From: Deltaproteobacteria bacterium
GTDB taxonomy: Bacteria > Myxococcota_A > Polyangia > Polyangiales > Houyiibacteriaceae
Direction: 5' to 3'
Length of the DNA: 64,000 bases
NCBI GenBank assembly: GCA_034670305.1
Contig: JAXMNT010000031.1
Coordinates: forward strand, 1-64,000
The notes beneath the pieces were generated by a model that did not search any database, was not told the DNA's origin, and saw only the letters and a program-made list of their open reading frames with translations. Positions 400 to 12,283 of this stretch are shown in pieces. The position numbers and the translations under genes are program-made. Numbering within the stretch: the stretch's first letter is position 1; each line of letters opens with the position of its first letter.

Positions 400-1254
400 C
401 TACGAGGCCATGACGACGGTGAGGTCGACGCGGTCGACCGAGGCGCGGTGGAGGCGCATGCGCCAGTCGACGCCGAGGATCTCGTGCTCGGCGAGCGGCT
501 CCCAGATGTTCTCGCCCTGCAGGGGCTCACTGGAGAAGATGAGGTGGTTCACGAACCCGGTCTTGGTCGGTGCTTCGCATTCGGCGGCGAGGCTCGGACA
601 GGAATCCCGGTCGGCGCACTTCTTCTTGAAGGTGGACCAGTAGAGTTCCTTGCCGCCTTGCACCGCGGCCATCGTCGTTCCGTCGGTGAGAATGATGGTC
701 AGCAGCGCGCGGTTGTCGGCGTCGTCGCAGATGGCCCGCACCTTCGCGACGGTGGCGCGGAGCGCGGGTACGACCGCGTCGATCCCGAACCGGGACCCAA
801 GCGCCCCATTCGCGCTGAGCTCGGAGAGGAACAGCAGGAAGATGACTTCGCTGTCGGTGTCACCCAGCACGAAGCGTCGAAGCCGTGGCGCGATCTCGGC
901 GAGCAACTCCGCCCGCTTCGCGGCGAAGTTCGGGATGTCGCCGTTGTGCGCCATCACCCACCGGCCGTACTGAAACGGGTGGCAGTTGAGCACCGTCAGG
1001 TTGCCCTGGGTGGCCTTGCGCACGTGCGCGAGCACCGTCTCCGACGCGACCACGCCACTGACCCGATGAAAGAGTTGGTCGCTCACCGCCGTCGTCGGGC
1101 TTCGGGTGATGTGCGGTGATCCGTCCACGTAGAACGCGACCCCCCACCCGTCCGGATGCTGGTTGCTCTGGGTGCCAAGCGCGTTGTCCGCCGCGACGAG
1201 CGAGCGGTGTACTTGGCTGGGGATCACACTGCGGAAACCAAAGAGTCGGCACAT
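400..1254 (-). CDS. Class II glutamine amidotransferase (YafJ/EgtC-like Ntn hydrolase)
   Basis: N-terminal MCRLFG nucleophile, plus HPDGWG, AHVRKAT, NCHPF, HNG, GDTDSE and SSEPL motifs. Confidence 0.9.
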   Translation of the reverse strand: MCRLFGFRSVIPSQVHRSLVAADNALGTQSNQHPDGWGVAFYVDGSPHITRSPTTAVSDQLFHRVSGVVASETVLAHVRKATQGNLTVLNCHPFQYGRWVMAHNGDIPNFAAKRAELLAEIAPRLRRFVLGDTDSEVIFLLFLSELSANGALGSRFGIDAVVPALRATVAKVRAICDDADNRALLTIILTDGTTMAAVQGGKELYWSTFKKKCADRDSCPSLAAECEAPTKTGFVNHLIFSSEPLQGENIWEPLAEHEILGVDWRMRLHRASVDRVDLTVVMAS

Positions 1255-1297
1255 CGTCGGCGCACCATACCGGAGAACCCGGGGGCTTGCTCCAGAG

Positions 1298-1512
1298 CCG
1301 CAGAGCTGCAGGACCGCAGAGGTGCAGGACCGCAGGACCGCACCAAGGGCAAGGGCAGGGGCAAGGGCATCGCGCCGCTGGCGCTGGCAAGGGAGCTGCA
1401 GGACCGCAGAGCTGCAGGACCGCAGAACCGCACCACGGGCAGGGGCAAGGGCATCGCGCCTTTGGCGCTGGCAAGGGAGCTGCAGGACCGCAGAGCTGCA
1501 GGACCGCAGGAC
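1298..1512. repeat. Intergenic composite tandem repeat (~85-90-bp unit, about 2.4 copies, built from GCAGGACC/GCAGAGCT 8-mers and GGGCAA hexamers)
   Basis: GCTGCAGGACCGCAG recurs throughout, and GGGGCAAGGGCATCGCGCC..TGGCGCTGGCAAGGGA occurs twice. Confidence 0.85.
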
Positions 1513-2811
1513 CTACGGGACGAGGGCGTCGCAGCCTTCGCCGCGGATGCTCGGGATGACGATCTGAACGACCGTGCTCTTGAGGTTGTTCACGCCGTCG
1601 CCGCGCAGGATGATCGTGAGGAAGTACACGATGGGTTCTTCGCCGCGCATGATGGTGTCGTTGGCGAGCATCACCCGGAGCCCGACGCGCGTGCCGGGGC
1701 GCACCCGCTCGTACCGGTCGCCGAGGTCGTCGGCGCCCGAGGCGGGCGTGGCCCCGGTGGTCACGATGCCGGTGACGAACTCGCGGGCGTCGTAGTCGTC
1801 GCCTGGGTAGTCCTCGGTGATCGCGTCGATGTTGATTGGGGTCTCGTCGACGAGCTGCCGGACGACGTCGATGACGCCGCGGTCGAGCCGTTCACCGCTC
1901 GTCCCGATGTCCACGACGATGGGCGACCCGTCTTCGGTGACCGCGCCGGTGTCGCGCGCGATCTGCTCGAGGTCGCGCACGGCCGGCGGAGTGCCGGGAC
2001 CGAACGAGCCGCCGCTGTAGAGGCCAAGCACCTTCGCGCCGATCGAACGGAGCGCGGTGACCGCGTCCTCGTAGACGGCGGGCGGAGGCGCGATGCCCAT
2101 GTAGGGTTCGCTGCCGCCGGGTCCGTTGTGGAACGCGGCGTCGGTGAAGAGCAGGATGATCGGCGTGCCTTCGCCGCGGAAACACGGCGCCCCCACGGTG
2201 CCGTCCGGACAGCGGCGGCCGGGGACGCGGAAGCTCGGCAGACCAGCGCCGGTCGCGACCTGAAAGAGCGCTTCGGTGTGGCTCTCGGGTACGTCGCTGC
2301 CGCTGAGGAACGAAAGGCTGTTCACGCCGGCCTGCGCTTCCGGAAGGCTGGCCGTGCTGCGTTGCAAGAGCCGGAACGGGATGTCGTTCGAGGTGTCGCC
2401 GTAGGGGGAGACCGGGTAGTCGGCGAACTCCGCGACACTCAGCTGCACGTCCGAGATCTCTTCGATGAGGGCCGGCGAGATCACGTCGTTCAGGCCGCGC
2501 TGAATCTGCCCGATCTCTTCGGTCATGCTCCCGGTCACGTCGACGAGGAACAAGACGTCGGCGGTGGAGATGCGCGCGACGAAGGCGACGTCCACGAACT
2601 CGGGCGGCTCGTCCGGAGGAAGCTCGATGCAGACGTCCGGGGGGGGCGGCGGCACGAACCCATCGATCGGCGGAGCGTCGCGAAGCGGCGCGTCGATCGG
2701 GACGAAACCGTCCTCTTCGGGGCCGGCATCGACGAACGGCACGTTCAATCCGGTCTTGGCGCCACAGGCACCGAGCAGAAGAACGAAGAGGAGCGAGAGA
2801 GGGCGGTTCAT
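1513..2811 (-). CDS. VWA-domain lipoprotein, integrin-beta-like (paralog A)
   Basis: Start re-called at MNRPLSLLFVLLLGAC-GAKTGL (lipobox). MIDAS-like DVTGSM, SDVPESHTEALFQVATG, LFTDAAFH. Confidence 0.85.
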   Translation of the reverse strand: MNRPLSLLFVLLLGACGAKTGLNVPFVDAGPEEDGFVPIDAPLRDAPPIDGFVPPPPPDVCIELPPDEPPEFVDVAFVARISTADVLFLVDVTGSMTEEIGQIQRGLNDVISPALIEEISDVQLSVAEFADYPVSPYGDTSNDIPFRLLQRSTASLPEAQAGVNSLSFLSGSDVPESHTEALFQVATGAGLPSFRVPGRRCPDGTVGAPCFRGEGTPIILLFTDAAFHNGPGGSEPYMGIAPPPAVYEDAVTALRSIGAKVLGLYSGGSFGPGTPPAVRDLEQIARDTGAVTEDGSPIVVDIGTSGERLDRGVIDVVRQLVDETPINIDAITEDYPGDDYDAREFVTGIVTTGATPASGADDLGDRYERVRPGTRVGLRVMLANDTIMRGEEPIVYFLTIILRGDGVNNLKSTVVQIVIPSIRGEGCDALVP

Positions 2812-2942
2812 CGGAGTCCAGAGTGTCGGTTGACCGTCGGTCGGTCGAGGGCGATGCCCCCTAAGTGGCACCAACCTCAAGCAATCATCATACCCACACT
2901 TGGCGTGCCTCGCTGTGCCACCCCGGGCTTCGCGTTGCGTGG

Positions 2943-4217
2943 CTACATGTCGCATCCGCCGCCATCTTCCCCAGGAATGACGAAAACCACGTCGTTTCGG
3001 GCCAACCGACTGCGGCGGAAGGCGCGAAAGAGCACCCGGGCCGGGATGCGAATCGTCTCCGGAACCACCGGAAAACTGCCCGCGTCCAGCTCGATCTCGA
3101 AGGTGACCCGTGTCCCAGGGATCACACCCACGAACTCGTCTTCGGCGATTTCGGTCACACCGTCGGGCGGATCCGCCGATAGCGGCCGCACCGCGCGCAC
3201 CAGATCGCGGGCGTCGTACATGTCGCCGAGGACGTCCTCGACGAGTGCGTCGACATCGAGCGGCGTGCCTTCCGCGAGGCGCTGGATCGCGTCCACGATG
3301 CCGGTGCCCACGCCGGTGCCCGCGCCCCCGATGTCGAACGCGAGCGGGGTGCCGTCCGCCTCGACGGCGCCGGTGTCGCGGGCCAGCGCGCGCAGGTGGC
3401 TCATCGGAGACATGGAGAACGAGTCCCGCGCACCGAGGCCGATCACGAGCACACCGAGCGCGCGAAGCGCCTCGATGGACTCGGCGTAGGTGTGCGGCGT
3501 GCCCGGCGTGGTGAAGCGGTAGCGGCTGACCGGCGCGACGCTCGGCGGACCGTTGTTCATCGGCGCGTCGGTGATCAAGACCACGACCGGCAGTGAGTCG
3601 CGTCGAAAGCAGACGCCTCCGAGACCACCCGATGCGCAGCCGGCCGAGGTCGGGATCCACGGCGAGAGACCGTCGCCGGTCGCGACCTGGTAGAGCCCTT
3701 CGACCTGTGCTTCGGGTTCGTCGAAGTTGCCCCAGCTCGGCAACCCTTCGAGGGCCGATTCGACCAGGAGCAGATCGCTCGTGATGGGCGTTCGAAGTTC
3801 GAACGGCTCGACGTCTCGAGGGCCATGCGGTGCGACGGGGAACTCACCCACGAGCGCGACGCCGAACGCGGCGTCCGGAATCGCGGCGCGCACGCCGGGC
3901 ACCACCCGGTCGCGGAGCCGGTTTCGAATGTTGTCGATTTCGTCGAGCATCGAGGCGGTCGCGTCGAGCAGGAAGAAGACGTCGGCGACGGCCAAGCTCA
4001 CAGGCGCTTCGAACGAGGTTCGAACCGGGCCGCCTTCGCGCGGGATCTCGATGCAGGGGGGCGGTACGAACGCATCGACGCCGGCATCGATCGGGGGCGG
4101 TGCGTCCGGACCGCCGTCCATGGGCGCGTCCGGCTGGTAGAGGCCCGTCTTTGCACCGCAGCCGAAGCCGACGAGGAGCAGGGCGAGGGAGGCCGCCTTG
4201 GTCAGGGTTCGTCGCAT
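2943..4217 (-). CDS. VWA-domain lipoprotein, integrin-beta-like (paralog B)
   Basis: Start re-called at MRRTLTKAASLALLLVGFGC-GAKTGL. DATASM, GNFDEPEAQVEGLYQVATG, LITDAP. Confidence 0.85.
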   Translation of the reverse strand: MRRTLTKAASLALLLVGFGCGAKTGLYQPDAPMDGGPDAPPPIDAGVDAFVPPPCIEIPREGGPVRTSFEAPVSLAVADVFFLLDATASMLDEIDNIRNRLRDRVVPGVRAAIPDAAFGVALVGEFPVAPHGPRDVEPFELRTPITSDLLLVESALEGLPSWGNFDEPEAQVEGLYQVATGDGLSPWIPTSAGCASGGLGGVCFRRDSLPVVVLITDAPMNNGPPSVAPVSRYRFTTPGTPHTYAESIEALRALGVLVIGLGARDSFSMSPMSHLRALARDTGAVEADGTPLAFDIGGAGTGVGTGIVDAIQRLAEGTPLDVDALVEDVLGDMYDARDLVRAVRPLSADPPDGVTEIAEDEFVGVIPGTRVTFEIELDAGSFPVVPETIRIPARVLFRAFRRSRLARNDVVFVIPGEDGGGCDM

Positions 4218-5503
4218 CCGGCGCCGTCCGTGCCGGGGACCACGATGTCGATGAACGCGCGGCTGATTCTTCGCCGCATGTCGCCCCGGAAGATGACCTC
4301 GAGGCGGAAGCGCTGGGGTCTCGGTCCAGGCACCACTGCGTCGTTGCGGAGCACGACTTCCCAGGTGAGCAGGGTGCCGGCGGTGACATCTCGGAACACG
4401 CCCGCGTCGAAGTCGATCGAACCCACGCCGGACATCGGGTCCGCGCTCAGCGGACGGAGCGCTTCCACGAAGTCGGCCGAGTTGACGTCGTCGGTGGGAT
4501 CCCCATCGAAGTAGATCGCGTCGACGTCCTGTTCGGCGGTGCTCGCAAAGGTTCGAATCGCTTCGACGACGCCCGCGCTCAAGCCCTCGCCGGTCGAGCC
4601 GATGTCGTAGACCAGCTCGTCCCCATCGGCGACAGCGCCCGTGTCTCTCGCGACCCGTTCCAGGTGTTGTCGGGGCACGCCCCGACCGGAATCGAATCCG
4701 ATGACCCGCATGTCGAGCGCGCGCAGTGCCGCGAGGGCGTCGGGGTAGGTCGCGGGTCTTGGCACGACGTCGCTGCCGTAGGGATGGGCACCGTCGGGAC
4801 CGTTGTGGAACTCGGCGTCGGTGAACAGCATCACCACAGCCATGGCGTCGCTTCGGAAGCAGGCGTAGCCGCGGCCGCCGCTTGGACAACCAGCACTCGG
4901 GGGCACGTGGCTGCCGCGGCCTTCTCCGGTCGCGAGTTGGTAGAGCGCTTCGACCTGGCTCTCCTCGACGTCGCGCCCGTCCGCCATCGTGATCGAGTTG
5001 ACCGCGGCCTGCACCGCTGAGATGTCGTCGGTCATCGGCAGGCGCAGCTCGAAGGGTTTGTCGCCCCGGACCGAGGACCCGTACGAGCCGACCGCGAAGT
5101 CTGCGAACGTGGCGACCGCGAGACGCGAGTCGGGAATGGCCTCTCGGATGGCCGGCGCGATCGAGTCGCGCAAGCGCGCGCGGATGCGATCGATCTCCTG
5201 GTCCATGGACGAGGTCACGTCGATCAAGAACGCGATGTCCGCGGCGCCGATCTGCGCTTCGACCTCGAGCGAGATCTCCACCGGTCCCCCGTCGAAGGGG
5301 ACCTCGATGCAGAGGTCGGCGTCGATGCCGGCGTCCATGCCGCTGTCGATGCCCGCATCGAATGAAGCATCGGGTGCGTTGTCGCCTCCGTCGGGCACAT
5401 AGAGGCCGGTTTTCGCGCCACAGCCCACGCACGCCAAGGCCGTCGCCAAGGTCACCGCGTGGCGGAGCGAGGGCGTTGTTCGCAGACCGGAACTCAGACG
5501 CAT
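4202..5503 (-). CDS. VWA-domain lipoprotein, integrin-beta-like (paralog C)
   Basis: Start re-called near MRLSSGLRTT..LACVGC-GAKTGL (alternative start 5512). DVTSSM, DVEESQVEALYQLATG, LFTDAEFH. Its stop overlaps the start of paralog B. Confidence 0.85.
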   Translation of the reverse strand: MRLSSGLRTTPSLRHAVTLATALACVGCGAKTGLYVPDGGDNAPDASFDAGIDSGMDAGIDADLCIEVPFDGGPVEISLEVEAQIGAADIAFLIDVTSSMDQEIDRIRARLRDSIAPAIREAIPDSRLAVATFADFAVGSYGSSVRGDKPFELRLPMTDDISAVQAAVNSITMADGRDVEESQVEALYQLATGEGRGSHVPPSAGCPSGGRGYACFRSDAMAVVMLFTDAEFHNGPDGAHPYGSDVVPRPATYPDALAALRALDMRVIGFDSGRGVPRQHLERVARDTGAVADGDELVYDIGSTGEGLSAGVVEAIRTFASTAEQDVDAIYFDGDPTDDVNSADFVEALRPLSADPMSGVGSIDFDAGVFRDVTAGTLLTWEVVLRNDAVVPGPRPQRFRLEVIFRGDMRRRISRAFIDIVVPGTDGAGCDEP

Positions 5504-5607
5504 CGCGCCCATCCTAACAGCCTCGAACACGGTAGGCCCACTGGGTGGCAGAACATCGTCCTCTTCGTAGGGCCGGACGCGTCGGAGCGAAAGTCCGGGC
5601 GAGGGAC

Positions 5608-6675
5608 TCATCGTTTCTTCCAGGTCGCTCGGCGTTTCGCCGCGCGGGCCCGAGCCCGGTCCCGGGAGAACAGATCGACGTAGTCGATGGCCATCGGCTC
5701 CACCGCGGCGGCGTCTCCGAAGGTGGGCAGCTTTCGCTCGAGCTGCGTGCCGAAGGCTCGGAGCGCGTCGGTGGCTCCGGCGAACTGTTGAACCTCGGCC
5801 TGGCAGGCGGCTGCCGCGACCCGAGCCGCGACCGTCCGCCCGATGTGGCGTCGCGCCGCGAGGTCCACCGTGCTCGCGACGAGGGCGTCGGCCCCGAAGC
5901 GGTGCTGGTGCACCAGATCCGCGGCGACCCGCAAGGTGGCGGCTTCGTCGATCGCGCCGTCTTTGCAGAGCACCAGCGAAGGCTGGAAGTAGTTGTGGAA
6001 GGGACACACGCGGACGCCGAACTCCTCGAAGACGTCCGGGGCGCTCATTCGTTCGAGGTGGATGAAGATCCGCCGGACCGCGTCCCGGTGCGGCAGTCGC
6101 TGCGCGCGCCGGACCAGGGATGGGATCTCGTCTCGGTACACGTTCGCGCGGTCGAGCACCGCGAGCAGCGTCTTGGTCCCGATGCGCCCCGCGCCGAGAT
6201 CGGCGTACAGGGAGTAGATGAACGCGTCGGCCTCGGCGTCGTCCCCGAACAGCACCTCTTGGGTCTCGGGCGGCGCGTCGATGCGCGCGTCCAGCAGCGC
6301 GGCGAGTTTGTAGCTCACCTGGTCTTTCAGGAACCGAACCTTGCCCCGCAAGAGCTTCCGAAACGTCGGTTTGAGGGTGAACGAGTCCCATCGAATGCCG
6401 TCGAGCCGAAGTTTCTCCTCGAGCACTTTGCGCATCTGCTCCGGGCTGCCCGAGAGGATGTAGATGCCGGCCGGTCCGGTGGCCCGGAGCTCGCGGAGCA
6501 AAGCCGATGCACCCGGTACGGTGCGTTTGAGTTCAGCCCCCTCCATCGCGGTCCGGATCAGATCGCGGATCGTGTCGAACTCCGTGCGCAGGTACGTCTT
6601 GTCCAGGTCCCACCGGTAGATGGTGTTTCCCGGAGACAAGAACGGATCGGGGCGCGGTCCCACGCCGCCGACCAT
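5608..6675 (-). CDS. HAD-superfamily phosphatase-like protein (App1/DUF2183-like)
   Basis: WDLDKT (motif I DxDxT), LSGSP, and LFGDDAEAD acidic motif IV. Confidence 0.65.
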   Translation of the reverse strand: MVGGVGPRPDPFLSPGNTIYRWDLDKTYLRTEFDTIRDLIRTAMEGAELKRTVPGASALLRELRATGPAGIYILSGSPEQMRKVLEEKLRLDGIRWDSFTLKPTFRKLLRGKVRFLKDQVSYKLAALLDARIDAPPETQEVLFGDDAEADAFIYSLYADLGAGRIGTKTLLAVLDRANVYRDEIPSLVRRAQRLPHRDAVRRIFIHLERMSAPDVFEEFGVRVCPFHNYFQPSLVLCKDGAIDEAATLRVAADLVHQHRFGADALVASTVDLAARRHIGRTVAARVAAAACQAEVQQFAGATDALRAFGTQLERKLPTFGDAAAVEPMAIDYVDLFSRDRARARAAKRRATWKKR

Positions 6676-6783: not shown

Positions 6784-8367
6784 TTGAAACCCGTGCGTTC
6801 CCTATCCTGCCTCACCTGTCTTCTGGCACTCGCGTGCAACGGAAACATCGGTGAACCCCCTGGCTCGGACGACCCCGATCGTCCGGGATACGACCCGGTC
6901 GACGCCCGCTTCGAAACCCGCGTCTGGCGCCTCAGTCCGCTTCACTACGAGGCGGAGATGCAGCGGCTCTTCGGTGACCAGGTCGAGGTGTCGTCGATCC
7001 CCGAAGGCGCACCCGAACACCACCTCACCGACATCGCCGCCAACCAGCGGGTCGACGTGGGCAACGCGGGACTCTTCGCGGAGAGCGCGCGTTCGGTGGC
7101 CAGTTGGCTGCGGAGCAACCCCGGCGCGATGCGTTGCGGCGCGCCAGGCTCCGACGCCTGCGTGGACGAAGTGCTCGCTTGGTTGCCGTCCGAAGCGTTT
7201 CGCCGACCGGTGACCGCTGAGGAGCGCGCGGAGCTGCGGGCCCTCTTCGACGCGCTTCAGACCGAGTACGGCTACGACTACGCGTTCGCCGGCATGATCC
7301 GCGCGGTCCTGCTCTCGCCGCACTTCCTTTACCGCACCGAGCTCGGCGACGGCTCGAGTGGCGACATCGCAGAGCTGACCCAGGACGAGATCGCGAGTTT
7401 GCTCGCGTTTGCGTTGACGGACCAGGGGCCGGACGAAGCGCTTCGGAGCGCGGGCGACCTCACCGATCCAGATGTGCGCGAAGCGCAGGCCCGTCGGCTG
7501 ATGGGTTCCTCCAGCGCGATGTGGCAGCGGTTCTTCTGGGAGTGGCTGCACATGGCAACGCTCGAGAGCCAGGGTCCCGAGGTGGGTCTCTCCGGCGGCA
7601 TGGTCGAGCAGATCCGGGAAGAGTACGAAGCGTTCGTCGGCAACATCGTCGTGGAGGAGCGTGGCTCCCTGCGGGATCTCCTGACCGCCACCCACACGTG
7701 GACACGTCCTGGACTCGCGGCGCACTACGGCGCGGAGCACCCCGGCGGCGGCCTCGCGCGGGTGGAGCTCGATCCCACCCAGCGGGGTGGACTCCTGACG
7801 CAGGCGGCGTGGCTCGTCAGTCACGGCAAGCGAGGACGCGCAAACGTCGTCCGGCGTGGCATGGGCACATTCGTGGACGCGATGTGTTTCAACGTCACGC
7901 CGCCCAACGACCTCGACCTCGAAGCGGAACTCGAGCGCATCGCAGGACCCGACGCCACGGTGCGCGAGATCGTGGTCGCCCGGGGCGAGGACGGAACCTG
8001 CGGCAACTGTCACCGCCTCGCCGATCCCATCGGCCTGGTGTTCGAGTCGTTCGCGAGCGATGGCTCGTGGCAGACCGAGTACGAGAGCGACGGCCTCCCC
8101 GTCGAGACCGACATCACCATGGAAGGCCTCGGCGACTTCGACCGCGCCAACGACTTCTCCGCGGCGTTGGTCGACGACGTTCGTTTCCAGCACTGCCTCG
8201 TTCAGCGCCTCGCCCACTTCATGGTCGGCGTGGACGTGGGCTCTCCGGGTGCCATCACCTGGACGCACGAGGCGCATGCCGCGTTCCGTGAACAGGACCT
8301 GTCGTTCGAAGCGCTGGTCGTCTCCATCGTCCGGCACCCCGCGTTCATCGAGCGGAGCAAACCATGA
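6784..8367 (+). CDS. DUF1592/DUF1588/DUF1595-type lipoprotein with a CxxCH motif
   Basis: Lipobox LALAC. RLS..Y, AFRRP, LLSPHFLYR, RGGLLTQAAWL, CGNCH..DPIGLVFESF. Confidence 0.85.
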   Translation: MKPVRSLSCLTCLLALACNGNIGEPPGSDDPDRPGYDPVDARFETRVWRLSPLHYEAEMQRLFGDQVEVSSIPEGAPEHHLTDIAANQRVDVGNAGLFAESARSVASWLRSNPGAMRCGAPGSDACVDEVLAWLPSEAFRRPVTAEERAELRALFDALQTEYGYDYAFAGMIRAVLLSPHFLYRTELGDGSSGDIAELTQDEIASLLAFALTDQGPDEALRSAGDLTDPDVREAQARRLMGSSSAMWQRFFWEWLHMATLESQGPEVGLSGGMVEQIREEYEAFVGNIVVEERGSLRDLLTATHTWTRPGLAAHYGAEHPGGGLARVELDPTQRGGLLTQAAWLVSHGKRGRANVVRRGMGTFVDAMCFNVTPPNDLDLEAELERIAGPDATVREIVVARGEDGTCGNCHRLADPIGLVFESFASDGSWQTEYESDGLPVETDITMEGLGDFDRANDFSAALVDDVRFQHCLVQRLAHFMVGVDVGSPGAITWTHEAHAAFREQDLSFEALVVSIVRHPAFIERSKP

Positions 8368-9839
8368 AATTCTCCCGACGACGTTTTGCCGCCATGGTGG
8401 GCGGCGCCGCGGTCGCGGCACCCTTTCTCACCGGTGCCCGTCGACACGCCATCGCCCAGCCCCCGGCCGGCCCGATGCGGTTCTTGGCGATTCGTACCCC
8501 GCACGGGGTCGATCGCGACTTCTGGATCCCGCGCACCGGTGCGGGTGGCGAGCCGGGCGGCGCGGACATGGCGCTCTCCGATCTCACCTTCGAATACCCG
8601 CTGAGCATTCTCTCTCCGCTCATGCCCTGGCGTTCCCAGATCACCGTGCTCGATGGGCTCGACACCCAGGTGTGCAAAGAGGGCACCCGCGCCGGTGTGC
8701 GCACCGCCCATGGCCACAACGAGCAGGGCACCATGTTGACGGGCGCCCAGCCGCCGGAGAACCGCGAGGGCAACTTCGACGGTCACCCGAGCCTCGACTT
8801 CGTGCTTCACGGGCGCCTCGGTGCGCCCGCGTTGCTCACCGCGTCGGTCGAAGGGACCGGTTCGTGGAAGGCGATGAGCTACGACGCCAGCGGTTCGCCC
8901 CGCGCGCCGGAGTCGAACCCGCAGGCCGTGTTCCGAGCCGCGTTCCCGTCGGATTTCGTGCCCCCGGATCCGGAAGAACCGACGATCGACTACTCCGCAG
9001 GCGAGGACCGCATCGCCGGCTACAACGACGCGTACCTCCGACAGTTGCGGGACCGCCTCACGGGCACCGAACGCGCGAAACTCGACGGCCACATCGCAGC
9101 CATGGCGGCGCTCAGCGGCGGCGGTGGGCCAGGTGGTCCGGGCGGCATGTTGGCGGCGTGTCTGACCCGCGGCAGCGATGTGCCCGGCCGCAATGGCCGC
9201 ATGTCCAGCTACACCGAGGTCGAAGAGGTGGCGCGCACCCATGCGCGGGTCATCGCGCAAGCCTTCGCGTGCGGGCGCGCCAGCTGCGCGACGCTGCAGA
9301 TTCTGAACGACTACCCGAACTGGTTCAGCGACGTGCCCGAGGTGCGGACGGGGGACATCCTCGCACGGTACGGAAGCGACTTCCGTTTTCACGAGAACCT
9401 CGTGCACGACTACTGGGGCGCGAGTGGGGCCGACAAGGACGTCCTGCGCGTCGGGTACACGGCGGGTCTGCGCTGGAGCGCGACCCACTTCGCCGGCGTG
9501 CTGAGCGAGCTCGACTCGATCGTCGATCCGCTGGATCCGACGGGCGGGACCATCTTGGACAACACGATCGTGTATTGGCACAACGAGTTCGGCCACGACG
9601 GACACGACAACCAGCACACGCGCCATCCGGTGGTGATCGCGGGTGGCGGAGGCCGCACGCTTCGACTCGGTCGGTACCTGCGTCTGCGCAACATCTCGGG
9701 CAGCGAGCGCGTGCCGCACAACCGGCTCCTGACCAGCATCGCGCAGGCGATGGGCCAGGGCGACATCGACTACTTCGGCGACCGGGACCTAGAGAGCCGC
9801 GCGGAGTACCGCGGACCCCTCGCCGAACTGATGGCCTAG
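8364..9839 (+). CDS. DUF1552 family Tat-exported protein
   Basis: Twin-arginine SRRRF signal. 4-nt overlap with the DUF1592 gene (the usual pairing). DP.GGTILDNTIV..NEFG and HNRLL motifs. Confidence 0.85.
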   Translation: MKFSRRRFAAMVGGAAVAAPFLTGARRHAIAQPPAGPMRFLAIRTPHGVDRDFWIPRTGAGGEPGGADMALSDLTFEYPLSILSPLMPWRSQITVLDGLDTQVCKEGTRAGVRTAHGHNEQGTMLTGAQPPENREGNFDGHPSLDFVLHGRLGAPALLTASVEGTGSWKAMSYDASGSPRAPESNPQAVFRAAFPSDFVPPDPEEPTIDYSAGEDRIAGYNDAYLRQLRDRLTGTERAKLDGHIAAMAALSGGGGPGGPGGMLAACLTRGSDVPGRNGRMSSYTEVEEVARTHARVIAQAFACGRASCATLQILNDYPNWFSDVPEVRTGDILARYGSDFRFHENLVHDYWGASGADKDVLRVGYTAGLRWSATHFAGVLSELDSIVDPLDPTGGTILDNTIVYWHNEFGHDGHDNQHTRHPVVIAGGGGRTLRLGRYLRLRNISGSERVPHNRLLTSIAQAMGQGDIDYFGDRDLESRAEYRGPLAELMA

Positions 9840-11977: not shown

Positions 11978-12283
11978 GCCCGTGCCCGTGCCCGTGGCTT
12001 TGCCCGTGCCCGTGCCCCAGGAGCGAATCCGATTCGGCGTCGCCTGCGGCGTCGGCGTCGGCATCGGCATCGGCATCGGCGTCGGCTTGGGCGTCGGCTT
12101 CGGCGTCGGCTTCGGCATCGGCTTCGGCTTCGGCTTCGGCTTCGGCATCGGCTTCGGTGTCGGCTTCGGCATCGGCTTCGGCGTCGGCTTCGGCATCGGC
12201 ATCGGCATCGGCATCGGCTCCGGCGTCGCCGTCGGCGTCGGCGTCGCCGTCGGCGTCGGCGTCGGCCTCGGCAGCGGCTTCGG
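11978..12283. repeat. Intergenic hexamer arrays: (GCCCGT)n followed by (GGCWTC/GGCGTC)n
   Basis: About 40 tandem degenerate hexamers at 12036-12283 and a CCCGTG tract at 11978-12017. Confidence 0.9.

Follow-up and report, generated by a model that had tools for sequence, protein, structure and literature searches.

The DNA considered here comprises positions 1 to 64,000 of contig JAXMNT010000031.1 (NCBI GenBank assembly GCA_034670305.1) of an uncultured myxobacterium, a Deltaproteobacteria bacterium that GTDB assigns to the Houyiibacteriaceae (Myxococcota_A; Polyangia; Polyangiales); this whole stretch is called the window. Three genes on its reverse strand, termed A, B and C, form a cassette at 1513..5503 (Table 1). 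They encode paralogous putative lipoproteins which, judging from structure models and alignments, very probably fold like the headpiece of an integrin β subunit, with a von Willebrand factor A (VWA) domain inserted in a β-sandwich. The three collinear open reading frames (ORFs) have 424-433 codons. The ATG of gene B lies inside the 3' end of gene A, with a 16 nt overlap, and a 131-nt gap separates gene C from gene B. Identity to A is 46% for the product of B and 41% for that of C, and tblastn comparisons among the three give E-values from 1e-58 to 1e-89. Chance likeness is excluded by these values together with the identities, and the kinship of the three proteins is far beyond chance.

Each product displays the same succession of motifs. 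A hydrophobic signal is followed by Cys-GAKTGL, a D/P/G/A-rich stretch, a Cys in C-I-E-[VIL], D-x-T-x-S-M (DVTSSM in A, DATASM in B, DVTGSM in C) and F-A-D-[FY]-x-V (V-G-E-F-P-V in B). Then come D-x-x-E-[SA]-[QH]-x-E (within DVEESQVEAL, DEPEAQVEGL and DVPESHTEAL of A, B and C), C-x8-C-F-R, [FI]-T-D-A and a C-terminal G-x-G-C-D (GAGCD, GGGCD and GEGCD). A first-pass annotation of the window, made from the letters alone, had read the locus as three collinear paralogs of about 430 residues that begin with CGAKTGL, continue in a D/P/G/A stalk and share DxTxSM, a D.PE/D.EE-type motif and a G.GCD end, and all of these are present in A, B and C. Its further motif LFTDA.FH holds for A (LFTDAEFH) and C (LFTDAAFH), B having LITDAPMN at this place. 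The presumptive lipobox consists in all three of a hydrophobic segment ending in [GA]-C and is atypical at -3/-2 in A, which has C-V there, and in B, which has G-F; orthologs mostly present [LVAM]-[AVLS]-[GA]-C. The tether that follows CGAKTGL spans 28-38 residues, is rich in D/P/G/A and reaches a predicted local distance difference test (pLDDT) score of 28-48 in the models.

Predicted fold and metal-site residues

AlphaFold2 structures cover A and C, computed from alignments of 67 sequences obtained by homology search and of 25 rows, respectively, and B is placed by its collinear sequence alignment with both. The model of A has a mean pLDDT of 88.2 and a predicted template modelling (pTM) score of 0.82, and that of C reaches 83.8 and 0.81. 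Past tether residues 39-60, which stay below a pLDDT of 50, the A model presents strands 64-67 and 76-82, a Rossmann-like α/β domain (residues 87-322) and seven further strands (324-422), and C adopts the same layout. The β-rich region that the first-pass annotation had placed on both sides of the VWA domain is seen in both models, where strands flank it. The last VWA helix of A (308-322) runs directly into the sandwich, as does its counterpart in C, and the proteins finish 8-11 residues past the last sandwich strand.

Comparison of these models with solved structures points to integrin β subunits. The best 50 Foldseek matches in the PDB are all integrin β for A (E down to 5e-19, ~390-410 columns, both domains covered) and likewise for C (E down to 5.6e-17), with ~390-420 columns for the two models taken together, and the alignments span the βI and hybrid domains. 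With VIA-align, A superposes on β7 with a Z-score of 24.4 over 308 residues (model residues 57-423 against chain residues 88-454). Against the isolated βI domain of β6 (5ffg_B) the Z-score is 23.6, with a root mean square deviation (r.m.s.d.) of 2.6 Å over 211 residues, and against 9lt3_B the r.m.s.d. is 4.4 Å over 313 residues. In a search independent of Foldseek, where the A model was compared with 48,161 representative chains, ranks 1-6 are integrin β (Z 21.8-24.4) and rank 7 is Pactolus, a β-integrin relative (Z 20.6). The best non-integrin VWA protein in that search is TFIIH p44 (Z 18.5, 182 residues), followed by a Catenulispora VWA-plus-sandwich protein (Z 17.6) and by collagen VI, αI domains, pilus tip adhesins and others (Z 14.5-17). 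In the models the VWA domain thus appears to be of the βI type, nearer to integrin β than to other VWA domains, and inserted in a hybrid-like β-sandwich that is built from N- and C-terminal strands. The integrin-β-like fold proposed in the first-pass annotation is borne out by these comparisons for A and C; a plain VWA domain, free of hybrid-like insertion and of equivalents of the accessory metal sites described below, is not what models and alignments display.

One conformational reading was tried and rejected. The A model fits open or ligand-bound heads (9lt3_B, 5nem_B, 3ze2_D, 7nwl_B) with an r.m.s.d. of 4.4-6.4 Å, against 8.6-10.8 Å for closed ones. This contrast is missing in the C model (6.7 Å to 3ze2_D versus 7.6-8.5 Å to many others), and no interdomain angle is claimed.

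Profile searches of the PDB with three different alignments also return nearly only integrin β chains, with weak but consistent E-values of 7e-4 to 1e-2. In the hidden Markov model (HMM) alignments, one query of which was the B-orthogroup profile aligned to integrin β6, D-x-T-x-S-M-x-[D/x]-E is paired with DLSASMDDD of β6 and DVSASMHNN of β8. Similarly, G-E-F-P-V-x-P-H / F-A-D-F-P-V-x-P-Y is paired with V-E-K-P-V-S-P-F / V-D-K-T-V-S-P-Y, (W-G-)N-x-D-x-P-E with (S-A-)N-I-D-T-P-E, and L-I-T-D-A with F-V-S-D-A of β6. These segments carry the ligands of three metal sites, which for β3 are given in PMC3792891 as D119, S121, S123 and E220 at the MIDAS (metal ion-dependent adhesion site), as D158, N215, D217, P219 and E220 at the synergistic metal-binding site (SyMBS), and as including S123, D126 and D127 at the site adjacent to MIDAS (ADMIDAS). 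By alignment, the MIDAS set is kept in A, B and C with Thr replacing the first Ser, and comprises D-x-T-x-S, E181 and D229 in A. The three proteins also retain an acidic residue where β3 has D158, together with D...E in the N-x-D-x-P-E loop. The putative SyMBS positions are occupied in B by the Glu of GEFPV and an exact N-F-D-E-P-E, in C by the Asp of FADYPV and S-D-V-P-E, and in A by the Asp of FADFAV and D-G-R-D-V-E-E. The presumptive ADMIDAS pair is D-E in B, E-E in C and Q-E in A, its second position being an invariant Glu. Among the 67 sequences, D95, S99, E103, D178, E181 and D229 of A are invariant. The same holds for four cysteines other than that of the lipobox (C65, C206, C215 and C430), which probably form two disulfides.

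Relatives, cassette conservation and neighbourhood

Curated family models touch the proteins below their thresholds. The Pfam Integrin_beta model (PF00362, gathering cut-off 24.8) scores 21.1 bits for A and 14.7 bits for C over a partial profile, VWA_4 (PF25106, cut-off 27) scores 24.8 and 21.5 bits over the first half of the profile only, and B has no Pfam match at E<=10. In the comparison of Integrin_beta with generic VWA that the first-pass annotation had called for, 67 relatives were scanned at E<=0.01, of which 65 match VWA_4, 50 Integrin_beta (best 9.4e-8), 18 VWA_2 and 7 VWA (PF00092). Homologs bear no other NCBI label than 'vWA domain-containing protein' or 'hypothetical protein'. A word-based search recovers 402 proteins at E<=0.001 among 8000 scored candidates, the named ones from Sandaracinaceae, Polyangiaceae and Polyangiales or Myxococcota metagenome-assembled genomes (MAGs). 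With a threshold of E<=0.001, an exhaustive profile search of 50% identity clusters yields 5786; tightening it to E<=1e-10 leaves 2852, and to E<=1e-30, 759. Longer proteins that carry the module C-terminally are numerous among them, and in 6 of 21 such proteins scanned the module is preceded by MopE-type Cys-rich or TSP3 repeats. The source genome (7.93 Mb, 105 contigs) holds about 14 full-length copies of the module, and a literature search found no paper on the A/B/C family or on the CGAKTGL motif.

A second tandem triplet of the VWA-plus-sandwich module lies on another contig of the same genome (C45:54500-60794, ORFs 335-2191, 2246-4147 and 4182-5858, reverse strand). There bacterial TSP3 repeats precede each module in place of the CGAKTGL head, an arrangement that recalls CglD of Myxococcus xanthus.

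Gene order was compared across 69 related loci of species-representative genomes, whose titles are all myxobacterial or unclassified MAGs; many of the loci are cut by contig ends. The order is A-B-C in 26 loci, A-B-B-C in one (B split in two), A-B in 18 and A-C in 3, while A stands alone in 19 and C in 2. Five TSP3-type paralogs root a FastTree phylogeny of 121 sequences, which was built after rows without the relaxed head motif or outside 380-440 residues had been dropped. Both the B group (40 sequences, support 1.0) and the C group (20 sequences, support 0.995) are monophyletic; A-labelled sequences are not monophyletic under this rooting. The recurring A-B-C order and the monophyly of the B and C groups indicate that the triplication is old, that it predates the spread of these lineages and that the three copies have been retained since.

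Beyond gene A lies a gene for a protein with an APP1-like phosphatidate phosphatase domain (PF09949, 33.1 bits), which stands beside A in 45 of the 69 loci, in 35 of these on the same strand. Since its strand varies, it counts as a neighbour and not evidently as a member of the same operon. Farther on, a DUF1592/DUF1588/DUF1595/DUF1585 protein is followed by a DUF1552 (HXXSHH) protein; DUF1592/DUF1552-type pairing is known from Planctomycetes and myxobacteria. On the other side, a GATase gene is separated from gene C by a spacer. No propeller gene adjoins the cassette, the neighbours being as far as a partner was sought. A scan of region 1200-5800 gives no promoter-like site and five terminator-like sites where 1.7 are expected, none of them credible at a gene end.

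Two repeat arrays were also observed. Between gene C and the GATase gene, starting directly past the gene C stop codon, a tandem repeat at 1303-1513 comprises 1.9-2.4 copies of 84-90 bp with 86-96% matches, made of GAGCTGCAGGACCGCA 16-mers and GGGCAA hexamers. At 12034-12283 the hexamer TCGGCG is repeated 41.7 times with 83% matches, within overlapping ORFs whose translations are Ala/Ser or Asp/Ala/Glu repeats according to the strand and frame chosen.

Table 1. Features of the A/B/C cassette, adjoining genes in the window and further carriers of the N-terminal head on other contigs of the genome.
Feature	Position	Strand	Basis or remark
Gene A, lipoprotein precursor, 433 aa	4202..5503 (alternative start 5512)	(-)	ORF and translation
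Gene B, paralog, 424 aa	2943..4217	(-)	ORF and translation
Gene C, paralog, 432 aa	1513..2811	(-)	ORF and translation
Signal peptide of A	5423-5503	(-)	upstream of lipobox Cys
Lipobox Cys and CGAKTGL of A, aa 28-34	5402..5422	(-)	sequence
Lipobox Cys and CGAKTGL of B, aa 20-26	4140..4160	(-)	sequence
Lipobox Cys and CGAKTGL of C, aa 16-22	2746..2766	(-)	sequence
Acidic Gly/Ala/Pro tether of A, 30 aa, motif to Cys65	5312..5401	(-)	composition; predicted disordered, pLDDT 41-48 (residues 31-60)
MIDAS strand of A, DVTSSM and DQE, aa 95-103	5195..5221	(-)	aligned to β6 DLSASMDDD and β8 DVSASMHNN
MIDAS strand equivalent of B, DATASMLDE	3939-3965	(-)	
MIDAS strand equivalent of C, DVTGSMTEE	2515-2541	(-)	
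FADFAV of A, aa 133-138	5090..5107	(-)	aligned with integrin β FVEKPV/FVDKxV; position of SyMBS Asp158 in β3
VGEFPV of B	3834-3851	(-)	
FADYPV of C	2410-2427	(-)	
ADGRDVEESQ of A, aa 174-183, N-x-D-x-P-E equivalent	4955..4984	(-)	alignment; D178 and E181 invariant in 67 sequences
WGNFDEPEAQ of B	3705-3734	(-)	exact N-x-D-x-P-E spacing
LSGSDVPESH of C	2278-2307	(-)	
FTDA of A, aa 227-230, last MIDAS Asp	4814..4825	(-)	D229 invariant; aligned to β6 VSDAD
FTDA equivalent of B	3564-3575	(-)	
FTDA equivalent of C	2137-2148	(-)	
Cys pair C206...C215 of A, CPSGGRGYACFR	4853..4888	(-)	invariant columns in 67 sequences
C-terminal GAGCD of A, aa 427-431	4211..4225	(-)	C430 invariant
GAGCD equivalent of B	2949-2963	(-)	
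GAGCD equivalent of C	1528-1542	(-)	
APP1-like phosphatidate phosphatase domain protein	5608-6675	(-)	PF09949; adjoins gene A
GATase gene	400-1254		spacer separates it from gene C
DUF1592/DUF1588/DUF1595/DUF1585 protein, then DUF1552 (HXXSHH) protein	6784-9839	(+)	4-nt overlap
Carrier of CGA[KR]T[GP]L-type head and acidic tether	C3:106171-106872		
Carrier, same type	C14:83667-84821		a different VWA protein
Carrier, same type	C66:11482-13095		
Carrier, same type	C97:5011-5718		
Further carrier	C1:269001-270836		
Further carrier	C10:183527-185644		
Further carrier	C17:33989-35416		
Further carrier	C35:36117-37256		
Further carrier	C49:43806-46364		

The conserved N-terminal head

Conservation of the head was counted in the 133 orthologs in which a regular expression calls a lipobox; 10 further genes lack the call and several of these visibly carry the motif. 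The relaxed form CG[AS][KR][TS]G[LPVA] is found in 117 of the 133 (58/63 for A, 40/41 for B and 19/29 for C) and the strict CGAKTGL in 81. Pro occupies position +10 in nearly every case, followed by Asp or Glu at +11, giving a conserved head of 11 residues, C-G-A-K-T-G-L-x-x-P-[DE]. The genome-wide count of CGA[KR]TGL suggested in the first-pass annotation was run on the six-frame translation of the source genome and gives 7 occurrences, each right after a signal-like hydrophobic stretch: those of A, B and C and those on contigs C3, C14, C66 and C97. Looser variants of the head are borne by further lipoproteins on contigs C1, C10, C17, C35 and C49, and also on C23 and C32. The nine other carriers that were scanned are unrelated to A/B/C and display PKD domains, MopE-type Cys-rich motifs, a Vgb-lyase/SGL-type propeller or a PQQ_2 propeller, with three of the nine having no Pfam match.

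Across the phylum, a degenerate DNA pattern of the motif has matches in 24 of 201 sampled Myxococcota genomes, with 0-2 per genome for a reversed-pattern control. Genomes with several copies are mostly large and of the same order as the source (5, 6, 5, 3 and 3 copies), and two multi-match genomes elsewhere in the phylum (5 and 3) mostly present Asn where the motif has Lys/Arg.

A rough and over-inclusive regular expression with a codon-bias filter, which missed A and B, lists 877 candidate lipoproteins in the source genome; their commonest mature N-terminus is C-G-D-D (120/877). The genome may have two classes of lipoprotein head, an acidic CGDD and a basic CGA[KR]TGL.

A role of the head as a sorting or docking signal has circumstantial support: such a signal would be expected to be more conserved than the tether and common to unrelated cargo, as the head is. 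The earlier suggestion that CGAKTGL acts as a sorting or export signal is in keeping with its retention in orthologs and its occurrence on unrelated lipoproteins. Pressed further, C-G-A-[KR]-T-G-L-x-x-P-[DE] could be a clade-specific address tag of lipoproteins in Polyangiales genomes, of which at least the source genome apparently lacks LPS and the Lpt pathway. The tag would be read by some outer-membrane machine that delivers its cargo, including the three integrin-β-like heads, PKD proteins and β-propellers, to the cell surface. The likeness to LptM described below would then be a relic of, or convergence on, a barrel-docking peptide. This reading as a whole is doubtful and is put forward as speculation.

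When the first 56 residues of A are compared with 177,635 PDB sequences, only LptM/YifL matches (E 0.038), GCGAKTGLYVPDGGDNAP being aligned with GCGLKGPLYFPPADKNAP so that C, G, K, L, Y and P fall in the same register from the lipidated Cys. LptM (YifL; NF047847 / PF13627; PF13627 is given as its head in 10.1101/2023.01.02.522452) thus resembles A in presenting C-G-x-K-x-x-L-Y-x-P right at the lipidated Cys. It differs in being a 6-kDa lipoprotein, whereas the head of A/B/C sits on 400-aa proteins. Some homologs carry the Joint Genome Institute (JGI) label 'predicted small lipoprotein YifL', and the NCBIfam LptM model (NF047847, SS_mature_LptM, 31 positions) touches 27 of the 67 relatives at E<=1. 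According to PMC12065857, the ordered part of LptM in the LptDE-LptM crystal structure is N-terminal only and lies inside LptD, and LptDE-bound lipoproteins are detected surface-exposed; a 2026 preprint reports surface lipoprotein export via the lipopolysaccharide (LPS) translocon in Bacteroidota. In principle the head could be of the LptM type and, by docking into the LptDE translocon, take the lipoprotein to the surface.

Such docking is very improbable, and is discounted because the scans for Lpt and LPS markers are negative and the LptM model is unspecific. All scores lie below its cut-off of 27.7 (A 16.7, B 12.6, C no match; best E among the relatives 2.2e-4), at such scores the model rings in 12 of 14 control genomes, and PF13627 is absent from the Pfam matches of A/B/C at E<=10. 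Six-frame HMM scans of the 96%-complete genome at E<=0.001, which may miss very divergent Lpt forms, give no match for LptD (PF04453, PF19838), LptD_N (PF03968), LptF/G (PF03739) or LpxC (PF03331), despite 7 matches to Omp85/BamA-type barrels; among the 14 control genomes, each of these Lpt/LpxC models rang in 1 to 7. By these scans the organism resembles a diderm lacking LPS transport, a condition reportedly found in Sorangium cellulosum.

Possible function and comparison with known systems

Models and alignments make it reasonably probable that A, B and C are anciently diverged paralogous lipoproteins, each composed of a lipid anchor, a conserved head, a tether and an integrin-β-like metal-binding module. 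Going by the lipobox pattern, signal peptidase II would cleave the precursor and the Cys would be lipidated. The conserved head may direct or dock the protein in the outer membrane, and the acidic tether of ~30 residues, disordered in the models, would let the module reach off the membrane. The MIDAS cation would be held by D-x-T-x-S, a Glu and the Asp of TDA, flanked by the SyMBS-like and ADMIDAS-like acidic sites, and, as in integrin βI domains, would bind an acidic side chain of the ligand. With the last VWA helix leading into the sandwich in the modelled topology, ligand binding could couple to the interdomain angle. By analogy with integrins, metal-dependent binding by A/B/C is likely. 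The three copies keep the metal sites and diverge elsewhere, and most likely bind different partners in the envelope or at the cell surface. A role as metal-dependent surface adhesins, which the first-pass annotation had proposed, is plausible and is put forward with reserve.

The proteins might instead face the periplasm, from the inner leaflet of the outer membrane or from the inner membrane, as metal-dependent scaffold or assembly factors of an envelope complex. We regard this placement as somewhat unlikely. It agrees with the periplasmic orientation that PMC12065857 gives as the default for most bacterial lipoproteins, with the finding that no export machine is encoded beside A/B/C, and with the many intracellular or scaffolding VWA proteins met in the wide structure search (TFIIH p44, proteasome Rpn10). 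However, the nearest structural relatives of the A and C models are extracellular adhesion receptors, and the four invariant Cys and the long acidic tether suit an extracytoplasmic, reaching protein. In addition, other lipoproteins with the same head carry PKD and propeller domains typical of surface proteins, and the myxobacterial VWA lipoproteins CglD and CglB are reported as surface-exposed (10.1101/2023.10.19.562135). It is also unlikely that A, B and C assemble into one hetero-oligomer, as a bacterial counterpart of a multi-chain adhesion receptor, and are not three independent binders. The A-B-C order of 26/69 loci with A-B in 18 more, the old and distinct orthogroups, and the A stop overlapping the B start, echoed by overlapping A/B tblastn matches in several other loci, would suit such an assembly. 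Against it, paralog cassettes are also retained when specificities differ, A stands alone in 19/69 loci (many cut by contig ends) and C lies 131 nt beyond B. A complex prediction of A (mature residues 33-406) with B (30-405) from 36-row alignments, with a score of 0.00 and a mark of 0.32, speaks neither for nor against binding.

The integrin β likeness could, on the other hand, be a general VWA-plus-Ig-like arrangement of many adhesins, with no specific relationship. The sequence E-values to integrins are all weak (7e-4 to 1e-2), and other VWA-plus-sandwich proteins (4fx5_A, 8s05_B, 7w6b_A, 6m48_A) align over 259-303 residues. This explanation is quite improbable, since integrin β and Pactolus occupy ranks 1-7 and lead all other VWA proteins by 2-6 Z units, ~30 more VWA residues align to βI than to any other VWA domain (211 vs 182), the βI-specific FxDxPVxPY and NxDxPE are shared, and Integrin_beta matches 50/67 members versus 7/67 for PF00092. 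Several points nevertheless weigh against treating A/B/C as integrin-β-like metal-binding lipoproteins. The structures of A and C are predicted, not solved, and B is known by sequence alone; all three proteins fall under every curated family threshold tested (Integrin_beta, VWA, CglD, LptM); and VWA with a β-sandwich also occurs in pilus tip adhesins and the Catenulispora VWA protein (Z 15.8-17.6). At the metal sites, Thr replaces the first MIDAS Ser, the ADMIDAS pair of A is Q-E and not D-D, and D-G-R-D-V-E-E stands for N-x-D-x-P-E in A. Around the cassette, no α-subunit-like partner adjoins, the neighbours being the APP1-like phosphatase, the GATase and the DUF1592/DUF1552 pair, and the source genome yielded no CglB or CglD equivalog.

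The integrin-β-like A/B/C family lies within a large unstudied superfamily (5786 clusters). Its small soluble head would make a convenient model for βI/hybrid allostery, and the family is a data point on whether the integrin β head arose in bacteria. The old three-gene cassette may bear on how such heads are used, and the N-terminal motif common to unrelated lipoproteins, occurring in a genome where LPS transport is not detected, on lipoprotein sorting in diderms.

Among known systems, the integrin β headpiece (PF00362) is the closest PDB fold for the A and C models. It shares with A/B/C a βI domain inserted in a hybrid domain, a final VWA helix continuing directly into the sandwich, MIDAS residues and putative SyMBS-like and ADMIDAS-like ones at aligned positions, and the FxDxPVxPY and NxDxPE motifs. 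In contrast, integrin β has PSI, an EGF stalk, a transmembrane helix and a cytoplasmic tail, of which A/B/C have none (no Pfam match), a lipidated Cys on a disordered tether being predicted instead. Apart from the Ser-to-Thr exchange at MIDAS, the loop after FADFPV is also far shorter in A/B/C than in integrins, with 18 residues between strands 125-133 and 152-158 of A.

For M. xanthus, CglD has been described as a surface-exposed β-integrin-like lipoprotein whose residues 644-1111 match integrin β3 by HHpred, with COMP-like calcium-binding repeats ahead of the βI-like region (10.1101/2023.10.19.562135). Like A/B/C, it is a myxobacterial lipoprotein with a VWA region that matches the βI domain of integrin β, and its repeats have a parallel in other paralogs of the source genome, where bacterial TSP3 repeats precede the module. 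CglD is, however, a protein of 1130 aa with a TSP3/COMP or EGF-like part, whereas A/B/C have ~430 aa and no TSP3 Pfam match. The NCBIfam CglD model (NF033765, cut-off 400 bits) touches one of the 67 relatives (E 0.0032), none of the 21 long relatives at E<=1e-5, and neither A, B nor C in a scan of the source genome at E<=0.01; across the phylum its matches are mostly to TSP3 repeats. That A/B/C are short CglD homologs was considered and rejected: when the family profile was set by hhalign against a match of the CglD model from another Myxococcota genome, the probability was 0.5% and the alignment covered the MIDAS strand only. With neither CglD nor CglB found in the genome, an Agl-Glt gliding role (focal adhesions) cannot be assumed for A/B/C.

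A sequence of Trichodesmium erythraeum (Johnson et al. 2009, cited in PMC3192720) is described there as homologous to more than 450 integrin β residues including βA, with no EGF repeats and no transmembrane segment; it belongs to a different phylum and is set beside A/B/C by this description only. Integrin-β-head-like proteins of bacteria have thus already been reported, in CglD and in Trichodesmium. The form encoded by the A/B/C cassette is new: a minimal bare head of ~370 folded residues, in which each of the three integrin metal sites has an apparent equivalent and a lipid anchor replaces the stalk.

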